Made by a program: the position numbers and the translations under genes. The notes beneath the pieces are model-generated. The model saw only the letters and a list, made by a program, of their open reading frames with translations, was not told where the DNA came from and made no database searches. A stretch of 64,000 bases of DNA from Sphingomonas sp. (lineage in GTDB: Bacteria; Pseudomonadota; Alphaproteobacteria; Sphingomonadales; Sphingomonadaceae), in contig NZ_JAFKLZ010000001.1 in NCBI RefSeq assembly GCF_017304615.1, forward strand, positions 1,450,570-1,514,569, in the 5' to 3' direction. Below, one piece after another: positions 3,613-60,426 of the stretch (its first letter is position 1; the number at the start of each line of letters is the position of its first letter).

Positions 3613-4643
3613 TTGCGCCCGTGCCCCAGATACCGGTCGAAGAACCGTGCGATCAGGGAATAGGCTTCGGTCGATTCCGGCATGTCGGGCCAGACGAAGA
3701 AGGCGTGCGGCAAGCCGTCGAACAGGTACAGCTCTGAGGGCACTCCGGCCGCCCCCAGCCGCCGATGCGCCAACGTCAGTGCGCTGACCGCGAAATCACG
3801 TCCGCCCGCCAGCAGCAAGGTCGGCGGCATCGCGCGCACTTCTGCATCCGACAACAGAGGATAGGCGGCGGCGTCGGTCACCGGGATACTCGTCATATAG
3901 GGCGTCGGCAGCGTCGCCGGCAACGCGGGCACGGGCAATGCCGCTCCGCCGGTGATCGGACCCGCGAGATAGGGACTGTCCCCCGAATAAGACGCGCCGG
4001 TGCCGCAAAACGTGCCGATCGCGCCGGGCTTGGGCAGCTTGAGGCGGCGGATCCACGCGGTCGCCTGGGCGGTGATGACGCCGCCGGCAGAGCAGCCGTA
4101 GATGCCGATATTGGCGGCCGGATATCGCTTGAGCAAAGCGCGATAGACGGCGGCGACGTCCTCCGACGCGGCAGGATATTTGAACTCGGGCGTCAGCCGA
4201 TAATCGACCGTCACCACCCGGACGCGCATCGTCGCCGCGATCGGGATCGCCTCGACCAGCGCGCCGCTGCCCGAGCCCCACATGAAGGCGCCGCCATGCA
4301 CGTTGATGAGCACGCGGCCCGCATTGCGCGGCGCGATACCCGCCGCCGGCTCGACGCTGTCGACCATCACGCCGCCGATCGTCTCGCGCCGCTCGCGGGT
4401 CGTGAAGTTCCGCCGCATCTCCGCCAGTCGGTCGTCATTATACTTTTGGTAGAAGGCACGTTGCTTGGCCAGATCGCCCTTGATCGCGTCCGGAGCGGTC
4501 GCCGCCCGCATGCGCGCCAGGACGTCCAGCGCTTGCGGGCTGAGCTGGTTGGAAGGGGGCAGCGTAAAAGATGGCACCACCGTCTGCGCCCCGAGCGGCG
4601 CGGCAGCGAAGGCAGCCAACAGAATCGTCAGGCGCAATTTCAT
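3609..4643 (-). CDS. secreted esterase/lipase, hormone-sensitive-lipase (alpha/beta-hydrolase fold-3) type
   Basis: Signal peptide MKLRLTILLAAFAAAPLGAQ. HGGAF oxyanion motif and GCSAGG nucleophile elbow. Confidence 0.8.
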   Translation of the reverse strand: MKLRLTILLAAFAAAPLGAQTVVPSFTLPPSNQLSPQALDVLARMRAATAPDAIKGDLAKQRAFYQKYNDDRLAEMRRNFTTRERRETIGGVMVDSVEPAAGIAPRNAGRVLINVHGGAFMWGSGSGALVEAIPIAATMRVRVVTVDYRLTPEFKYPAASEDVAAVYRALLKRYPAANIGIYGCSAGGVITAQATAWIRRLKLPKPGAIGTFCGTGASYSGDSPYLAGPITGGAALPVPALPATLPTPYMTSIPVTDAAAYPLLSDAEVRAMPPTLLLAGGRDFAVSALTLAHRRLGAAGVPSELYLFDGLPHAFFVWPDMPESTEAYSLIARFFDRYLGHGRK

Positions 4644-54636: not shown

Positions 54637-54713
54637 GCGCCCGTAGTTCAACTGGATAGAGCACGAGCCTTCTAAGCTTGGAGTTGCAGGTTCGAGTCCT
54701 GCCGGGCGCGCCA
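54637..54713 (+). tRNA. tRNA-Arg (anticodon TCT)
   Basis: GCGCCCGTAGTTCAACTGGATAGAGCACGAGCCTTCTAAGCTTGGAGTTGCAGGTTCGAGTCCTGCCGGGCGCGCCA. Anticodon loop CUUCUAA; encoded CCA. Confidence 0.92.
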
Positions 54714-54719
54714 ATCACC
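54712..54719. repeat. left 8-bp direct repeat (target-site duplication) CAATCACC
   Basis: Identical to 60359-60366. Overlaps the last 2 nt of the tRNA-Arg CCA. Confidence 0.8.
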
Positions 54720-54742
54720 CGGTATTATGGCGCAATTGCACC
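54720..54742 (+). repeat. left terminal inverted repeat (IRL)
   Basis: cggtattatggcgcaattgcacc versus the reverse complement of 60336-60358, cggtattatggcgcaaacgcacc. Confidence 0.85.
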
Positions 54743-54802
54743 GGACTCCAAACCTTTGAATCTGCGTTTCTTTCTGGTCAAACCGACCGAAAGGGACATC
54801 AC

Positions 54803-55282
54803 ATGGGCATTAGCAACGGTCGCGCTCATCTGGAGCGCAGGATCAGCACCTACCTCTCCGAACTCAACGAAAAACGCCGGCTCGCGAAGGGTGCGACCGA
54901 GGCTGCTGCCGACCTGCCGAGTCTACAAACTCGCATCACTCGGCTGGAAGAACTCATCCACGCGATCGAGACGCTACTTCGTGAAGACGACCCGTCGTGG
55001 AACTGTTCTCGCGTCAAGCCGAAGAAGAAGCACGCATTTCAGTCTCCTTTCCCGCTCGGCGAGGCCGGACCGATGGCGCTTGATGTGCTGCGTGAAGCGA
55101 CCGAGCCGATGACCTGTCGCGACATTGTTAGGACGATGCTCGCGAACATCGGTGTCGCCGATTATGAGCGAGACCTGTTGGACAAATGCACCAACTCGCT
55201 CGCTGCCTATCTCACGAAACACAAGGGTGACCTGATCGAATCGAATGGCGCTTGGCCGCAGAAATGGTGGGTGATTCGTTGA
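54803..55282 (+). CDS. hypothetical protein (coiled-coil N-terminus, possible winged-helix C-terminus), cargo
   Basis: 159 aa. ATG preceded by AAAGGGA. No family recognised. Confidence 0.5.
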   Translation: MGISNGRAHLERRISTYLSELNEKRRLAKGATEAAADLPSLQTRITRLEELIHAIETLLREDDPSWNCSRVKPKKKHAFQSPFPLGEAGPMALDVLREATEPMTCRDIVRTMLANIGVADYERDLLDKCTNSLAAYLTKHKGDLIESNGAWPQKWWVIR

Positions 55283-55305
55283 ATCGAGTTTGGAGCCGAA
55301 AAACT

Positions 55306-55372
55306 ATCTGAGAAAAGACGCGAGTTAGTTCGCTAAATTGTTGGACGGTCACCAATACCAATCTGAGAAAAG
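55306..55372 (+). repeat. 12-bp direct repeat ATCTGAGAAAAG x2 upstream of the transposase
   Basis: Exact copies at 55306-55317 and 55361-55372. Confidence 0.8.
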
Positions 55373-55527
55373 GAGTTGTTGACCGACCCTAAAAATCTGC
55401 ATTTTTCCTCTGCTGCACTAAGGCAACGGAGGCTAAGTCGCAGCATTTTCTTCTCTCGAAACAGGCGCGTGAGCTGAGCGTAAAGGGCATCACGCGCCTG
55501 TCCGACGAAGAGGCATTCTCGAAATAT

Positions 55528-56403
55528 GTGGCGCTGCGCTTCGTCCACAACGGCGGCAAGCCGTTCTGCGAACGTTGCAACTCTCAAGATCTTTATTTCA
55601 TCTCCACGCGGCGCAAATGGAAGTGCGCCAACAAAGGCTGTCAGCGCCATTTCTCGCCAACGACCGATACGCCCTTCGCGAGCCGTAAGCTCAGCTATCG
55701 CGACATCCTCATCGCAATCGCTCTTTTCGCAAAGGAGCCAAAAGGTCTGCCGGCCATTCGGCTGAGTCATCAGCTTGAGGTGGGTTACAAAACGGCGTTC
55801 GTTCTTCTGCATAAGATTCGGGAGCAAGTTGGCATCGAACAGCATCGGCACAAGTTGCGTGGCATTGTCGAAATCGATGGTGGCTATAACGGCGGCTACG
55901 TGCGGCCGTTCAACAATCAGGGCGACCGCATCGATAGGCGCGCCACGCGCTACTCTGAGAAGCGAAAATGCGTCTGCATCATGCGCGAGCGTGGCGGTCG
56001 AAGCAGGGCATTCATTTGCAGCGAGACAGAGGCGGCACGACTTGCACCGGAGGTCATTGAGCCCGGTAGCATTATCGTTTCGGACTACCACCCGGCCTAC
56101 AACCGGTTACGTTCCCAATATCACGTTCTCAGGGTCAATCACGACAAGCAGTTCGCAGACGGGAACGCCTCGACTAACTGGGCGGAGTCGTACTTCGCTA
56201 GACTAGATCGCGCAGAGAAGGGGATCTTCCACCGCTTCGCTGGCGAATATTTCAGCGCCTACGTCAACGAGATTTCGTGGCGCGAGGACACTCGACGACA
56301 GAGCGATTTGCAGAAGTTCGACGCGCTGGCGCATTTGATGACGCGCGGCGGCGTATCACGGCGGTGGAAGGGGTATTGGCAACGACGGAAAGCTGCCGCG
56401 TGA
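55528..56403 (+). CDS. IS1595-family transposase (Zn-ribbon + ISXO2-like DDE domain)
   Basis: FCERCNSQDLYFISTRRKWKCANKGCQRHFSPTTDTPFASRKLSYRDILIAI (CxxC...CxxC ribbon), then EIDGGYNGG and later acidic residues. Homology-like sequence (LSDEEAFSKYVALRF) continues upstream of the GTG start with no start codon. Confidence 0.8.
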   Translation: MALRFVHNGGKPFCERCNSQDLYFISTRRKWKCANKGCQRHFSPTTDTPFASRKLSYRDILIAIALFAKEPKGLPAIRLSHQLEVGYKTAFVLLHKIREQVGIEQHRHKLRGIVEIDGGYNGGYVRPFNNQGDRIDRRATRYSEKRKCVCIMRERGGRSRAFICSETEAARLAPEVIEPGSIIVSDYHPAYNRLRSQYHVLRVNHDKQFADGNASTNWAESYFARLDRAEKGIFHRFAGEYFSAYVNEISWREDTRRQSDLQKFDALAHLMTRGGVSRRWKGYWQRRKAAA

Positions 56404-56606
56404 TGAGCACCTTTCGTTTCCACCTGATCGGCAGCGCCCAACCAGTCGAGCTAGATGTCGTCGCATCCACCATGGCCGAACTGGCCGGGTTGGTATCGCG
56501 GCAACGTTTTATCGAAGGTCGAATGACACAGCCTGACAGCGACGGCGTTTTAAGCGGGATGCTGATCGCCACGTCCCGGATACAGTGCGTGGTCGAAGTC
56601 AGTTAG
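56403..56606 (+). CDS. 67-aa hypothetical, start overlaps the transposase stop by 1 nt
   Basis: TGATG junction. MSTFRFHLIGSAQPVELDVVASTMAELAGLVSRQRF... Confidence 0.4.
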   Translation: MSTFRFHLIGSAQPVELDVVASTMAELAGLVSRQRFIEGRMTQPDSDGVLSGMLIATSRIQCVVEVS

Positions 56607-56988
56607 CGGCATCGTCCCGCATCACGAGGCCGCTATCAGTGTCGACCTCGTATTTTGAAAAGTTGACCTTACCGTTCGTCTGGCCGCGAGAACAAATGAC
56701 CTGATAGTGATGGCCCGACACGCGCGAGACGCTAACGGTCTCCCAACACCCGCTATCCTTGGTCGAGATGATCTCGCGAAACCCGTTGCCCGAGCTATCA
56801 AGGTCGTGCGCCTTTTGAAGGCCGGGATCGCCAGCCAAGAATTGCGCGTCTTTAATGTTGATCGGTTGAGCGGCTTCCGATTGATCGTCGCTTTTGCCTG
56901 AGCCGCCAAACATACAGCTACCGATCCCCAGCAGCATGAGTAGACCCAACATGGCGCTGCCTGCGCCGCCCTGCGCTCGATTGCTCAC
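56599..56988 (-). CDS. putative lipoprotein, cargo
   Basis: LLMLLGIGSC lipobox-like motif after a short N-terminus. 129 aa. The start is either GTG 56988 or ATG 56952. Confidence 0.55.
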   Translation of the reverse strand: MSNRAQGGAGSAMLGLLMLLGIGSCMFGGSGKSDDQSEAAQPINIKDAQFLAGDPGLQKAHDLDSSGNGFREIISTKDSGCWETVSVSRVSGHHYQVICSRGQTNGKVNFSKYEVDTDSGLVMRDDAAN

Positions 56989-57598
56989 GATGTGATCCCG
57001 CGTTCGCCCGGCTGGTGCCGGGACGGTTAGTCACGCGCGAACACGGGTAAGCACGCCCCGCTTATTCGGCAGAGCCTGTTTTATTGAGCGGGCCGCCCGA
57101 CATGGCGGACCCGTGTTCAGTGCGTGATGCACACCCCGCTCAGGTGACTAAGCCGTTGCGGGGCTCGCTAATGTTACAGCGGCTTCCAGCGCGTTAGCAA
57201 GCTCATTGCACCGGCTAGCTTTAACCTTATCTCAATCTAAGAGCTTGCAAGAATCAGTTTAAGATGCGCAGGAAGCTCCACATTTTAGGAACAATCCCTC
57301 ACATTCGGGGTTGATAAGCTGCCTTTTGTATGTTACAAAGGTAGCGCTTTTGAGTAGATAGATGCCGGTTAACCCCGGCGTCGGTCTCCATGAGCCGGAT
57401 TTGTCTACGTGCCTTTTGTGTTTAGGGATGAACCTCAAATTAGTTGAGCATTCCTGAACTAAAATGCCTGGATGGGAAGACTGGAGAGCGCCGGAACTTT
57501 TGTTTCCGTGAGGTAATTCGGTCCACCGCCGCAGCGAAGGGAGAAAGCGTTAGGCAACGAGATTGGGCGGAGTGGCAGAGATGCCCTCCGCCTTTCTG

Positions 57599-58441
57599 CT
57601 AATAATACATATCACTCGCAAACATGTTCAGATGGGTATCACGCTTCTCGTCGTTGCTCACGCCATGGCAATTCCAGAACTGTCCGCTGATCGACGTTCG
57701 ATCAGCCTCGGTTTCTGATACGTTGTAATGTCGGTCCGCCTCAATACGAAAGCCGAACCGAAAACGAGCAGCTAGGTAGCAGTATGGCTTATGATGGCCT
57801 CCTGTCTCCGGTTTTGCGTGGCGTTCATTTCCATACACAAAGAACTTTTTATCGTCGTCAACTGCGTAGCGGGTGCCATAAGAGCTTTGACGCCTAGGAC
57901 GGACTCGCTTCCTTAATGAAAGCAACTGTTTGTCAACTAAATTGTTAAAGTCTGGTCGTAACGTTTCTGCCGAGCACAGCCTCTTGAGTTCGCTCAAATC
58001 ATTACCTGCGAAGTTTCTGAATGGAAGACTCAACAGTTTAACGTCGCTTGCTTGTTCAAATTTCCATGCCAAATGGCTAAAGGCTCGCAATCCTGTTGCT
58101 ATGCTTTTGTGAAAAAAGTTAAGGGGACTCCCGCCCAGCAACCCAAAGTCAATTGGCACGGGAAACATTATATTAGTAACATTTTCAGTTAAATGCTGCC
58201 ATCTCAAATCAATAAGAAGAATGCATTTCTCTGCATCTAAAGTCTCTTCAATGAGGAAGTTTTCCAATCCCTCAATTGAGGGACCATCATGTGGTATATA
58301 GCTGGACGCCGCGAGGGAAACGCGATGCGAGGCATAATAGCCTCTATTGAGCACTTCTTTGGGCGCAACATTATCCTTTAACCTACCGAAGAAACTCGAT
58401 AGATCACGGTCAGGCGAAATCAAACAGACTCGTAGATTCAT
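57599..58441 (-). CDS. 280-aa protein of unknown family (downstream gene of the low-GC cassette)
   Basis: ATGA overlap with the upstream gene. No TM segment and no signal peptide. The C-terminus has FRFGFRIEADRHYNV (238-241 HYNV) and DTHLNMF (270-273 HLNM). I recognise no family. Confidence 0.7.
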   Translation of the reverse strand: MNLRVCLISPDRDLSSFFGRLKDNVAPKEVLNRGYYASHRVSLAASSYIPHDGPSIEGLENFLIEETLDAEKCILLIDLRWQHLTENVTNIMFPVPIDFGLLGGSPLNFFHKSIATGLRAFSHLAWKFEQASDVKLLSLPFRNFAGNDLSELKRLCSAETLRPDFNNLVDKQLLSLRKRVRPRRQSSYGTRYAVDDDKKFFVYGNERHAKPETGGHHKPYCYLAARFRFGFRIEADRHYNVSETEADRTSISGQFWNCHGVSNDEKRDTHLNMFASDMYY

Positions 58442-58866
58442 CGGCGCGTGAGAGCAGCAAGCACCTTTGTCGGAATAATGACTTGTTCGACTAAGTCATC
58501 GGGCAAGCTAGCTATAGCCCTAAAAAATTGTATTAGGACAACTTCATTAGACGACTTAGTAATACGTGGCAAACGCCTTTCGCTATCCGAATGGGCATCG
58601 TCGGCGGTATAAGCAAATTCAGCTTCCGGAGGGATTACCCCAATCTTAGGTTTTTGTATTGGATGCTCCACAACTTTAACCACACCCTGCTCTTCGAGCC
58701 GCTTGGCAAATGTTTTTAGGCGCTCTTCTCCAATTACATCTTTGTAATTTTTTCCGTCTTTGCGTAAATCAGTGGCGATTGAGGTTAGCAAATAAGGGGC
58801 CTCATAGCTTTCCCACTGCTCCTTTGTCTTTGCCGAAATGTAGGAGACAAGCTCATCTTCGGTCAC
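58438..58866 (-). CDS. 142-aa protein of unknown family (upstream gene of the low-GC cassette)
   Basis: GTG 58866 sits 8 nt downstream of AAGGAG. Soluble, with a charged N-terminal roughly 75 aa that may be HTH-like (my inference only). Confidence 0.7.
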   Translation of the reverse strand: MTEDELVSYISAKTKEQWESYEAPYLLTSIATDLRKDGKNYKDVIGEERLKTFAKRLEEQGVVKVVEHPIQKPKIGVIPPEAEFAYTADDAHSDSERRLPRITKSSNEVVLIQFFRAIASLPDDLVEQVIIPTKVLAALTRR

Positions 58867-58974
58867 GTATGCTCTCCTTCAGGCACAGCCTTTGGCCCGC
58901 ATGGCATCGACTATAAGGCACAGACGATAACGAACTAACTCAAGCAGGGCTAGGTCTGCCATATGGTGAGCCCG

Positions 58975-58987
58975 CTTGGTGCGTTTG
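58975..58987 (+). repeat. IRR-like 13-mer CTTGGTGCGTTTG, copy 1
   Basis: Same orientation as the inner part of the right terminal repeat (CGTGGTGCGTTTG, 60333-60345). Confidence 0.7.
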
Positions 58988-59043
58988 TCGCTAATTCCGG
59001 ATCAATCGGGCCTCGGCTATGAGGCACTAAGAGGAGACCGCGA

Positions 59044-59220
59044 ATGGATTATCAGATAGGCGATACGGTGATACTCAAATCCGGCGGTGAGATCATGACC
59101 GTCGAAAGCGTGGAAGGTGGGAGCATCGATTGCGTATGGTTTAACGGCAAGAAGGTCGAGCGGTCATCGTTTGACCCAAGAACGCTAAAGCCATTTGAGA
59201 ACACCTTTGGCGGCTTCTAG
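59044..59220 (+). CDS. DUF2158 (YodC-like) small protein, 58 aa
   Basis: Not in the track because it is under 60 aa. MDYQIGDTVILKSGGEIMTVESVEGGSIDCVWFNGKKVERSSFDPRTLKPF matches the remembered DUF2158 pattern (GD.V.LKSGGP.MTV...C.WF). RBS GGAG. Confidence 0.7.
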   Translation: MDYQIGDTVILKSGGEIMTVESVEGGSIDCVWFNGKKVERSSFDPRTLKPFENTFGGF

Positions 59221-59233
59221 CGACCGCGCACCA

Positions 59234-59246
59234 CTTGGTGCGTTTG
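59234..59246 (+). repeat. IRR-like 13-mer CTTGGTGCGTTTG, copy 2
   Basis: Exact repeat of 58975-58987. The two copies bracket the DUF2158 gene. Confidence 0.7.
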
Positions 59247-59381
59247 CTGGAATAGACCGTCTGGCCCATTTGCGCATTTGCACTACTACACTGAGAATGT
59301 AGCTTGCTGGTGGACGACACCGGAGCTTTTGACCGTTTCGGAATTAAGTAACGGTCCGGCGGCGGTCGAGGATCGCTATGG

Positions 59382-59891
59382 TTAGAAGTTCTGCCAAAGG
59401 GGTCGCTCCATCACCTCACCAGCCAACATTTTTCGCACGACCTCCAATTGCTGGCCCAAAAACTCTACCAGCATATCTCGCTCATCCACAGTCGCTTCTC
59501 GGTCGCCCACGGTTTCAGCCATATTTTCAAAGACGAGGCGAACGGCAAGCAAAACAGCGTTCAGAGCAACAAGGTGCCGCGCCAGCGATCGGCTGCCTTG
59601 GTCATCTAATTCATAAATTGGAAAACGAGCAATCTCATCAATAACGCCGCCAACCGCTAACGCTCCGCCACGGAGGGGCAGTGAGAGAGGAAGAAAGTTA
59701 GGCGTTGTGTGGTAGCTCTCGATGACTTCGTAACCGTGAGACAGCAACCTAGCAGCCGCCTTCTTTAGCTGGCGCTTGTGATACCAAATCGGAATGAACG
59801 CAGTTAGATAGGTTACAACAAGAGCCAGCATCGCGCCGGCGAACTGAGCCCATCCGGCGAGCTTATCATGGGCCTCTAACCACGAAACCAT
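59382..59891 (-). CDS. hypothetical protein with one N-terminal TM helix, cargo
   Basis: ATG preceded by AGGAG. WAQFAGAMLALVVTYLTAFIPIWY, then a soluble helical domain. Confidence 0.55.
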   Translation of the reverse strand: MVSWLEAHDKLAGWAQFAGAMLALVVTYLTAFIPIWYHKRQLKKAAARLLSHGYEVIESYHTTPNFLPLSLPLRGGALAVGGVIDEIARFPIYELDDQGSRSLARHLVALNAVLLAVRLVFENMAETVGDREATVDERDMLVEFLGQQLEVVRKMLAGEVMERPLWQNF

Positions 59892-59954
59892 TCCGCCGCT
59901 CCTGTAAGATAGAGAATTTAGACTGCGATCCGCTGCAAATTGAAAGGTTATCGA

Positions 59955-60311
59955 ATGAAGCGCGACATGGACAAGGTGCGCGGCGTGATGTTGGCACTGG
60001 AAGCAAAGACCGGTCCCTTCGTCCTAACTTACGACACGCCATCTATGGGCGGAACTGACGACGGAGCCGAGACCGTCGAGTATATTGTGTTGCTTCATTC
60101 GGGCGGGTTCTTGGAAAGCACCCAGCGCAACGTTTATCGCCTATCTTGGGCAGGACACGAGTTTCTCGACAGCGTGCGCGATCCCGAGATTTGGCGGCAG
60201 ACGAAAGACGGAGCGGCCAAGATCGGCTCGTGGTCGATCACTTTGCTCGGAGAATTGGCGAAGGGCTTCCTCCGCGCGAAGGCAGCGTCCTTGGGACTAC
60301 CGATCGGCTGA
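59955..60311 (+). CDS. DUF2513 family protein (winged-helix-like), cargo
   Basis: MKRDMDKVRGVMLALEAK...LSWAGHEFLDSVRDPEIW matches my memory of DUF2513. Confidence 0.65.
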   Translation: MKRDMDKVRGVMLALEAKTGPFVLTYDTPSMGGTDDGAETVEYIVLLHSGGFLESTQRNVYRLSWAGHEFLDSVRDPEIWRQTKDGAAKIGSWSITLLGELAKGFLRAKAASLGLPIG

Positions 60312-60335
60312 CTGGCTCAACCTGATCAAGTTCGT

Positions 60336-60358
60336 GGTGCGTTTGCGCCATAATACCG
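60336..60358 (-). repeat. right terminal inverted repeat (IRR)
   Basis: See IRL. Followed by the 8-bp direct repeat CAATCACC at 60359-60366. Confidence 0.85.
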
Positions 60359-60426
60359 CAATCACCCAGCAATCGAGTTTGCGGCGAAATCCGCAAGGCG
60401 CTGCATGTCGCGTTCCCGGGCTGTCG

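Follow-up and report, generated by a model that had tools for sequence, protein, structure and literature searches.

A mobile gene pair of two undescribed families, a candidate toxin–antitoxin or abortive-infection module, carried by an IS1595-family transposon in Sphingomonas sp.

The 64,000-nucleotide stretch of the Sphingomonas sp. genome analysed here (hereafter the window; contig NZ_JAFKLZ010000001.1, positions 1,450,570 to 1,514,569 of the forward strand) contains a transposon that carries two overlapping genes, encoding an acidic protein of 142 amino acids (aa), called the small partner below, and a basic protein of 280 aa, called the large protein. The pair can be read as a self-contained, horizontally circulating module of two undescribed families, resembling toxin–antitoxin (TA) or abortive-infection systems, and we give this reading about an even chance of being right. 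A first-pass annotation, made from the sequence of the window, had proposed a candidate TA or defence cassette travelling as transposon cargo, and the comparative data presented below support that proposal. Judging by the sequence searches, both components appear to be new families, and the kind of system that they would form is a familiar one.

A coupled gene pair, its distribution and its neighbours

Both open reading frames (ORFs) of the pair, the GTG start of the small gene and the ATGA overlap at the junction of the two genes were described in the first-pass annotation, and all are borne out by the sequence (Table 1); the ribosome-binding site given there is also present, but with a spacer of 7 nt and not of 8 nt. 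The ORFs stand well above chance, since homolog matches reach E-values of 1e-102 for the large protein and 1e-46 for the small one. The public PGAP model of the large gene (WP_294040700.1, 274 aa) starts six codons downstream (58424-58441); the ATG start that gives the longer protein is favoured by the homolog alignment and by conservation of the ATGA overlap. RNA folding predicts a stable hairpin behind the large gene (dG -23.8 kcal/mol, z = -3.6, equalled by none of the 200 shuffles); no U-tract was found at this hairpin, which probably marks the end of the operon. The 1.27-kb pair has a G+C content of 45.5%, as compared with 64.9% for the part of the window beyond the mobile element, and is the GC minimum of all 64 kb: at the pair, 1-kb windows drop to 44.6%, while those beyond the element have 64.9 +/- 2.8%. 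The earlier claim that this is the lowest-GC DNA of the window therefore holds, while the values attached to it (37–42% against about 70%) need correction. The pair is also lower in GC than its flanks in all 25 of the loci compared, with a median difference of -10 points.

In all 36 of the loci fetched (27 non-redundant), the gene of the small partner directly precedes the large gene on the same strand; these loci span three phyla: Pseudomonadota (Alpha-, Beta- and Gammaproteobacteria), Actinomycetota (Microbacterium, Plantibacter) and Acidobacteriota (Granulicella). Of 17 homologous loci, 11 have the ATGA overlap at the junction, and the remainder show a TAAATG abutment or a gap of 1–2 nt. 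An apparent exception to the pairing, found on an IMG/VR contig (L035, 7082-8663), turned out to encode a 226-aa partner that contains both conserved modules, separated by about 80 inserted residues. The L035 locus belongs to a divergent branch, where the large protein has D in place of N240 and N in place of E206, and where a tyrosine integrase gene lies directly upstream. A three-gene system was considered and rejected, as no third gene is recurrent within 3 kb; no metabolic neighbour recurs among the loci of the pair either.

Searches of Pfam, NCBIfam, PADLOC (PADLOC-DB v2.0.0) and PHROGs revealed no match for either protein of the window, the PADLOC search giving no family at E <= 1, and the scanning of 23 members of the large family and 43 members of the small family, one by one at E <= 10, found no consistent library match. 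No member of either family matches any known TA family in Pfam, NCBIfam or PADLOC. These four curated libraries, together with the PDB sequence and fold searches described below, confirm the earlier statement that the families are unrecognised. Public sources label both proteins 'hypothetical protein' throughout, and searches of the literature library, whether for the accessions or for the topic, turned up no paper that mentions these accessions or describes such a pair. The word-indexed search revealed 23 homolog clusters of the large protein, and a profile search against 1.84 billion representatives found 439 family representatives (clustered at 50% identity) at E <= 1e-3, of which 185 reach E <= 1e-30; almost all of these proteins are 270–290 aa long. 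The first search with the small protein returned the query alone because of the sensitivity limit of the word index; the possibility that this protein is an orphan was rejected when a profile of 17 partners recovered 44 homolog clusters. The upstream gene of the Mesorhizobium pair encodes a protein 37% identical to the small partner (E = 1e-36).

The pair is carried by 12 plasmids of PLSDB and by none of the INPHARED phages. On a 4,616-bp ColE1-type mobilizable plasmid of Klebsiella it is the only cargo apart from the mobilization functions, and it was found in five of 5,426 complete E. coli genomes, on plasmids only and never on the chromosome; on an IncF plasmid of E. coli it lies beside repA. 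The pair adjoins BrnTA and RepM on an Acinetobacter plasmid and a TIR protein in A. baumannii, follows a ParA/MipZ pair in Aeromonas, and is located between IS630 and IS66 in Komagataeibacter. Among the chromosomal loci, it lies beside TnsB/TniB in Alishewanella. A tyrosine integrase is encoded directly upstream of the pair in three loci (L001, L017 and L035) and an integrase near it in L012, whereas IS66 and TraG occur near the pair in L021; a pSAM2-type RepSA is also among the neighbours.

The pair often lies among defence genes. A full-length SspH (2457 bits) is encoded directly upstream of the pair in Gallionella (L014/L019, 3780-19941), with SspC, SspD and SspG around it; located between SspH and the oppositely oriented SspC/SspD, the Gallionella pair lies inside a phosphorothioate-based Ssp locus, and not just nearby. 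PDC-S06 (3e-120) and Hhe/PDC-S37 (1875 bits) flank the pair in Brucella thiophenivorans. It is adjoined by a type III restriction–modification (R-M) pair (N6_N4 methylase and ResIII) and HEPN_Swt1 in L025, by GmrSD and a HEPN-helicase in Plantibacter, by a 1463-aa NACHT protein, TacA and TraG in L021, and by a Ppl-like ATPase in L012; PD-Lambda-2_B and PD-Lambda-5_A were also found among the neighbours. In a control at the threshold used for the neighbours, none of the 50 host ORFs of the window matched PADLOC at 1e-10. The first-pass annotation had considered the surroundings of the pair to be typical of anti-phage or addiction modules, and the neighbourhoods of the homologs, including the plasmid with the pair as sole cargo, the integrases, Ssp, type III R-M, PDC-S06/Hhe, NACHT and GmrSD, are in agreement with this.

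Predicted structures and conserved residues of the two proteins

The AlphaFold 2 (AF2) model of the large protein (pLDDT 89.8, pTM 0.87) predicts an overall alpha/beta architecture (39% helix, 24% strand), with a four-stranded Rossmann/flavodoxin-like N-domain (residues 1–100), a helical middle part (106–177) and a beta-rich C-terminal part (residues about 178–280, 41% strand); the term 'beta-rich', used earlier for the whole protein, is true of this last part. A comparison of 156 diverse sequences revealed 14 invariant residues (P140, D195, E206, H208, H217, C221, R228, G230, H238, N240, C258, H259, H270 and N272), all of which are in the C-terminal half and none in the N-domain. A basic strand of the large protein, LRxRxRP(R/K), is likewise well conserved, and the family as a whole is basic (median pI 8.85). 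Clustering of histidines in the last 75 residues, pointed out in the first-pass annotation, applies to six of the 11 histidines (208, 216, 217, 238, 259 and 270), but the residue listed there as His258 is a cysteine, followed by the histidine at 259. The pattern of conservation suggests that the invariant His, Cys, Asp, Glu, Asn and Arg residues compose a putative metal-dependent active site, that H217, C221, C258 and H259 possibly form a structural Zn site, and that the basic strand is a candidate for contacts with nucleic acid or a nucleotide.

Neither sequence nor structure searches related the large protein to any known enzyme class. Foldseek comparisons of the model with PDB and BFVD gave no match at E < 1e-3, and the weaker matches (E >= 8.5e-3) to flavodoxin, TIR, receiver, Argonaute-MID and PurE-like structures covered the N-terminal 100 residues only; membership of the N-domain in the TIR or receiver families was not accepted because this domain contains no invariant residue. 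Searches of the PDB sequences at E <= 10 with three profiles, including one of the C-domain only, made from 52 sequences, found nothing but two designed proteins (E of about 0.3); the single-sequence search did not reveal a relative either. No similarity of the large protein to the PD-(D/E)xK, HNH/His-Me, GIY-YIG, 2H, metallophosphatase or HD families was revealed by Pfam, the PDB profiles or Foldseek. Several assignments of the C-domain that its residues might bring to mind received no support from the searches: GIY-YIG (Y192..Y203-G, where Y203 is F in several members), PD-(D/E)xK (D195..E206-x-H208 on an alpha-beta-beta-beta-alpha-beta stretch), a His-Me finger, a 2H phosphoesterase (with two HxN motifs instead of two HxT/S), a cupin/2-oxoglutarate (2OG) oxygenase and a papain-like Cys-His-Asn triad. 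The nuclease or phosphoesterase role proposed in the first-pass annotation finds no support in homology and is a guess.

For the small partner, the AF2 model (pLDDT 83, about 92 for residues 1–80) predicts a winged-helix N-domain (1–80), a disordered linker (91–104) and a conserved C-terminal helical tail (106–141). All of the top 50 Foldseek matches of this model are winged-helix domains, with E-values of 0.09 or higher, which is consistent with the helix-turn-helix-like N-terminal module noticed in the sequence earlier. The best compact superposition of the N-domain was obtained with the LOTUS/OST-HTH domain of TDRD7 (3rco; TMt 0.63, rmsd 3.5 Å, prob 0.91, with a weak E-value of 0.14), and the C-terminal winged helix of ScpA (TMt 0.62) and RPC39 score about equally; the modelled N-domain can be described as a winged helix that appears closest to LOTUS-type domains. 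None of the 43 members of the small family matches Pfam OST-HTH at E <= 10, and a search of the PDB sequences with the profile of the small partner found no match. PDB matches to IgG Fc (E >= 0.0015) were regarded as compositional noise, and they were gone when the profile search was used. The small protein has a pI of 5.5, and the winged-helix domain is acidic in 81% of the family members (median pI 5.9), which makes the role of a classical DNA-binding repressor doubtful. In agreement with the first-pass annotation, neither protein of the pair contains transmembrane segments (the highest 19-residue Kyte–Doolittle average is 1.1).

The IS1595-family carrier transposon

The carrier of the pair belongs to the IS1595 family, as indicated by the DDE domain of its transposase and by terminal inverted repeats (IRs) accompanied by an 8-bp target-site duplication (TSD). 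The hallmarks given for IS1595 are one transposase, a zinc finger and a duplication of 8 bp (PMC8101967), and the family includes passenger-carrying elements known as 'transporter IS' (IS, insertion sequence) (PMC11891212). The transposase matches PF12762 DDE_Tnp_IS1595 with E = 2.8e-34 (118.8 bits, cut-off 27), and its N-terminal part matches Zn_ribbon_IS1595 (PF12760) with E = 7.7e-5, slightly below the cut-off (23.0 bits against 25.4). The IRs bracket the entire low-GC block, with CAATCACC abutting both of them, and every 1-kb window with a G+C content below 55% falls within the transposon. Together with a diverged second transposon that contains the pair, these features confirm the first-pass description of the pair as transposon cargo; its location beside a tRNA gene is likewise correct, the gene being tRNA-Arg (Table 1). 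The TSD overlaps the terminal CA of tRNA-Arg, and the tRNA gene therefore stays intact. The insertion at the 3' end of the tRNA gene is transposase-mediated, though such sites usually host integrase-mediated islands.

The G+C content is about 57% for the genes of the transposase, orf159, orf67, orf129 and DUF2513, 50–53% for DUF2158 and orf169, and 45% for the pair. Given the difference between the pair and the transposase with the other passengers of about 57%, the transposon is a GC mosaic, and this suggests that the pair was captured by the transposon from a lower-GC source. The second, diverged copy of the transposon with the same pair was found on a metagenomic contig (L003), where an end repeat, 22/23 identical to the right IR, is located 143 nt upstream of the pair, and where the pair is followed by a 126-aa gene, a 67-aa gene and the transposase. 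The amino acid identity between the two copies is 80% for the transposase, 73% for orf67, 67% for orf129, 58% for the large protein and 49% for the small protein; the pair thus appears from these identities to be a stable passenger of the transposon, evolving faster than its vehicle. A 1.5-kb block with DUF2158, orf169 and DUF2513, found beyond the pair in the window copy, is missing from the L003 copy.

The remaining ORFs of the transposon are small. The product of orf67 is 93% similar to its L003 equivalent, and orf67 represents a conserved gene translationally coupled to the IS1595 transposase. The identity of orf129 between the copies makes it the second conserved passenger of this transposon lineage; no Pfam or PHROGs match was found for its product. 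The orf159 product shows only weak Pfam matches, to HARE-HTH and PspB-like domains (E of about 0.02–0.03). A DUF2158 gene (4437-4625) also occurs about 3 kb from the pair in the Mesorhizobium locus L001.

Table 1. Features of the transposon, its insertion site and the gene pair (positions in the window)
Feature	Coordinates	Strand	Details
Small partner gene	58438..58866	-	142 aa, GTG start; ORF list
Large gene	57599..58441	-	280 aa; ORF list
ATGA stop/start overlap (translational coupling)	58438..58441	-	Sequence
AAGGAG ribosome-binding site	58874..58879	-	7 nt before small-gene GTG; sequence
Stable G+C-rich hairpin	57566..57592	-	Directly 3' of large-gene stop codon; RNA fold
Complete IS1595-family transposon ('transporter IS') carrying the pair	54720..60358		5,639 bp, G+C 53.1%; IR pair and directly read flanks
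Left terminal IR, 23 nt	54720..54742		21/23 complementary to 60336-60358
Right terminal IR, 23 nt	60336..60358		22/23 identical copy in metagenomic locus L003
Left TSD copy CAATCACC, 8 bp	54712..54719		Overlaps last 2 nt of tRNA-Arg
Right TSD copy CAATCACC, 8 bp	60359..60366		Flank sequence
tRNA-Arg(TCT), insertion target	54637..54713	+	ARAGORN
159-aa ORF (orf159)	54803-55282	+	Left transposon end
IS1595-family DDE transposase	55528..56403	+	291 aa; PF12762 DDE_Tnp_IS1595
67-aa ORF (orf67)	56403-56606	+	Overlaps transposase stop by 1 nt (TGATG); no family match
129-aa ORF (orf129)	56599-56988	-	N-terminal hydrophobic stretch, then Cys; lipoprotein-like look
Extra passenger block absent from L003	58867-60335		DUF2158, 169-aa ORF, DUF2513
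DUF2158 gene	59044-59220	+	
169-aa ORF (orf169)	59382-59891	-	No match
DUF2513/phrog_585 gene	59940-60311	+	

Possible mode of action, alternatives and comparison with known systems

If the pair works as a TA-like or abortive-infection module, the 280-aa protein would be the effector, with the active site in its conserved basic C-domain, and the fast-evolving Rossmann-like N-domain would be a regulatory or partner-binding part. The acidic 142-aa partner would be translated first from the common mRNA, in a ratio fixed by the ATGA coupling, and it may hold the enzyme inactive or direct it by means of its winged helix together with the conserved helical tail. The activity of the enzyme would then be set free when the module is lost or a phage infects the cell, which would explain the retention of the pair on plasmids, transposons and integrative islands. 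The two proteins show an asymmetry like that of TA pairs, with an acidic upstream partner and a basic enzyme, where the small protein has diverged more quickly than the large one, and each of them more quickly than the transposase. The module is, moreover, rare and patchy in its distribution. The data presented above establish the gene pair and its coupling, the strict co-occurrence, the mobility, the neighbours in defence islands, the fold classes and the invariant residues; toxicity of the large protein, its neutralisation by the partner, metal dependence, the substrate and a phage phenotype of the module are inferred. The pair may even found an undescribed two-component defence/TA system with a new enzyme fold (signature D-x10-ExH ... 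HxxxC ... RFG ... HxN ... CH ... HxN) and an acidic LOTUS-like partner, a system that would travel on IS1595 transposons, ColE1-type plasmids and integrative islands; this proposal is tentative, and we put its chances somewhat below even.

Several points weigh against the interpretation of the pair as a TA or abortive-infection module. Neither protein shows homology to a known toxin, antitoxin or defence protein, so the functional assignment rests wholly on context, that is, on guilt by association. A promoter and an operator palindrome were sought upstream of the pair and none was found; an acidic winged helix would be unusual for an autorepressing antitoxin, and a putative toxin of 280 aa exceeds most type II toxins in size. 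About one third of the chromosomal loci have housekeeping neighbours only (spoT, sua5, thiC, proB, an MCP), a situation which fits small solitary insertions of the pair, and the control for the enrichment of PADLOC matches was small (one genome, 50 ORFs).

Perhaps the pair is a pure addiction or stability module, a TA pair that does no more than keep plasmids, transposons and islands from being lost, through post-segregational killing, and has no anti-phage role. Its position as the only cargo of the 4.6-kb ColE1-type plasmid, its proximity to repA, ParA/MipZ or BrnTA in plasmid maintenance regions and the order of an acidic upstream partner and a basic downstream enzyme, as in TA pairs, would all be expected of such a module; the embedding of chromosomal copies among Ssp, R-M and PDC/Hhe components, however, is typical of defence genes. 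Addiction and defence roles overlap and are not mutually exclusive, and the purely addictive role seems unlikely. A still less probable explanation, in our opinion, is that the pair encodes a two-subunit nucleic-acid-processing enzyme of mobile elements, where the LOTUS/OST-HTH-like small protein serves as an RNA- or protein-binding adaptor that recruits the substrate, with possible roles in RNA processing, anti-restriction or anti-defence, or establishment of the element. In its favour, the partner superposes most compactly on the TDRD7 LOTUS domain, its winged helix is acidic and the pair always travels with mobile elements; moreover, OST-HTH domains are predicted to bind RNA and are normally coupled to RNases as substrate recruiters (PMC5499597), and they occur also in effectors of conflict systems (PMC8195603). 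Yet no member of the small family matches Pfam OST-HTH even at the permissive threshold used, the Foldseek E-values of the partner are weak, no INPHARED phage contains the pair, and a location in defence loci and next to integrases suits a host-protective cargo better than an anti-defence one.

The lack of functional annotation in public sources and the housekeeping neighbours at several loci might also be taken to indicate ordinary accessory metabolism, or spurious or decaying ORFs hitch-hiking in low-GC foreign DNA. Such an explanation is very improbable and effectively excluded by the conservation data: the large family numbers 439 representatives, its length is conserved and 14 of its residues are invariant, both structures were modelled with confidence, the pairing is intact at every locus and no metabolic neighbour is recurrent.

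Should the pair prove to be a working defence or addiction system, it would offer new effector chemistry for bacterial immunity; since Pfam, PADLOC and PDB contain no relative of the conserved domain of the large protein, its structure and substrate would be new information, and not just another version of a nuclease already known. Testing the module should be unusually easy, as it is short (1.27 kb) and self-contained and occurs naturally on an E. coli plasmid and on the 4.6-kb Klebsiella plasmid. It is also a clear case of a possible defence cassette being moved by an IS1595-type transposon, and it illustrates the exchange of such cargo between transposons, plasmids and islands. Candidates for new defence systems turn up often, but the present pair stands out among them as compact, widespread and structurally unmatched.

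Comparison with known systems concerns both the vehicle and the cargo. The carrier resembles IS1595 'transporter IS' elements such as ISNha5 (PMC11891212, PMC8101967) in its single transposase with a DDE_Tnp_IS1595 domain and a near-threshold Zn-ribbon match, in the short IRs at its ends, in the TSD of 8 bp and in several kilobases of passengers; it differs from them in its cargo, a candidate defence/TA pair with five further small ORFs, and in its insertion exactly at the 3' end of a tRNA gene. The small partner recalls the OST-HTH/LOTUS domains combined with NYN/PIN RNases (PMC5499597), since its N-domain superposes best on TDRD7 LOTUS, shares the helix-hairpin sequence pattern and is functionally tied to an enzyme; unlike them, it is a separate polypeptide and not a fusion, it has no Pfam OST-HTH match, and the enzyme of the pair is not of the NYN/PIN type.

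Homology was not found for any TA or defence family tested, and the pair is therefore not a member of any of them; the likeness to such systems is one of organisation. As in type II TA systems, the upstream partner is acidic, evolves faster and carries a helix at the C-terminus behind a disordered linker, and its translation is coupled to that of a basic downstream protein; a plasmid-maintenance context and a patchy distribution are shared as well; the differences are the three-domain, 280-aa architecture of the toxin candidate, the absence of both proteins from known TA families and the absence of an operator upstream of the pair in the searches made. The AbiE (AbiEi/AbiEii) type IV TA/abortive-infection systems offer another parallel: they are bicistronic with a 4-nt overlap, their upstream protein begins with a winged helix and has its neutralising part at the C-terminus, their downstream enzyme has about 280 aa, and they spread on mobile elements and in defence islands. 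No sequence or fold similarity of the pair to AbiE came out of the searches, the large protein contains no nucleotidyltransferase motifs and gives no AbiEii/NTP_transf match in Pfam, and the 142-aa partner is acidic and shorter than AbiEi. By analogy of gene order, coupling and domain plan, the architecture of the pair seems most like that of AbiE-type or type II TA operons.

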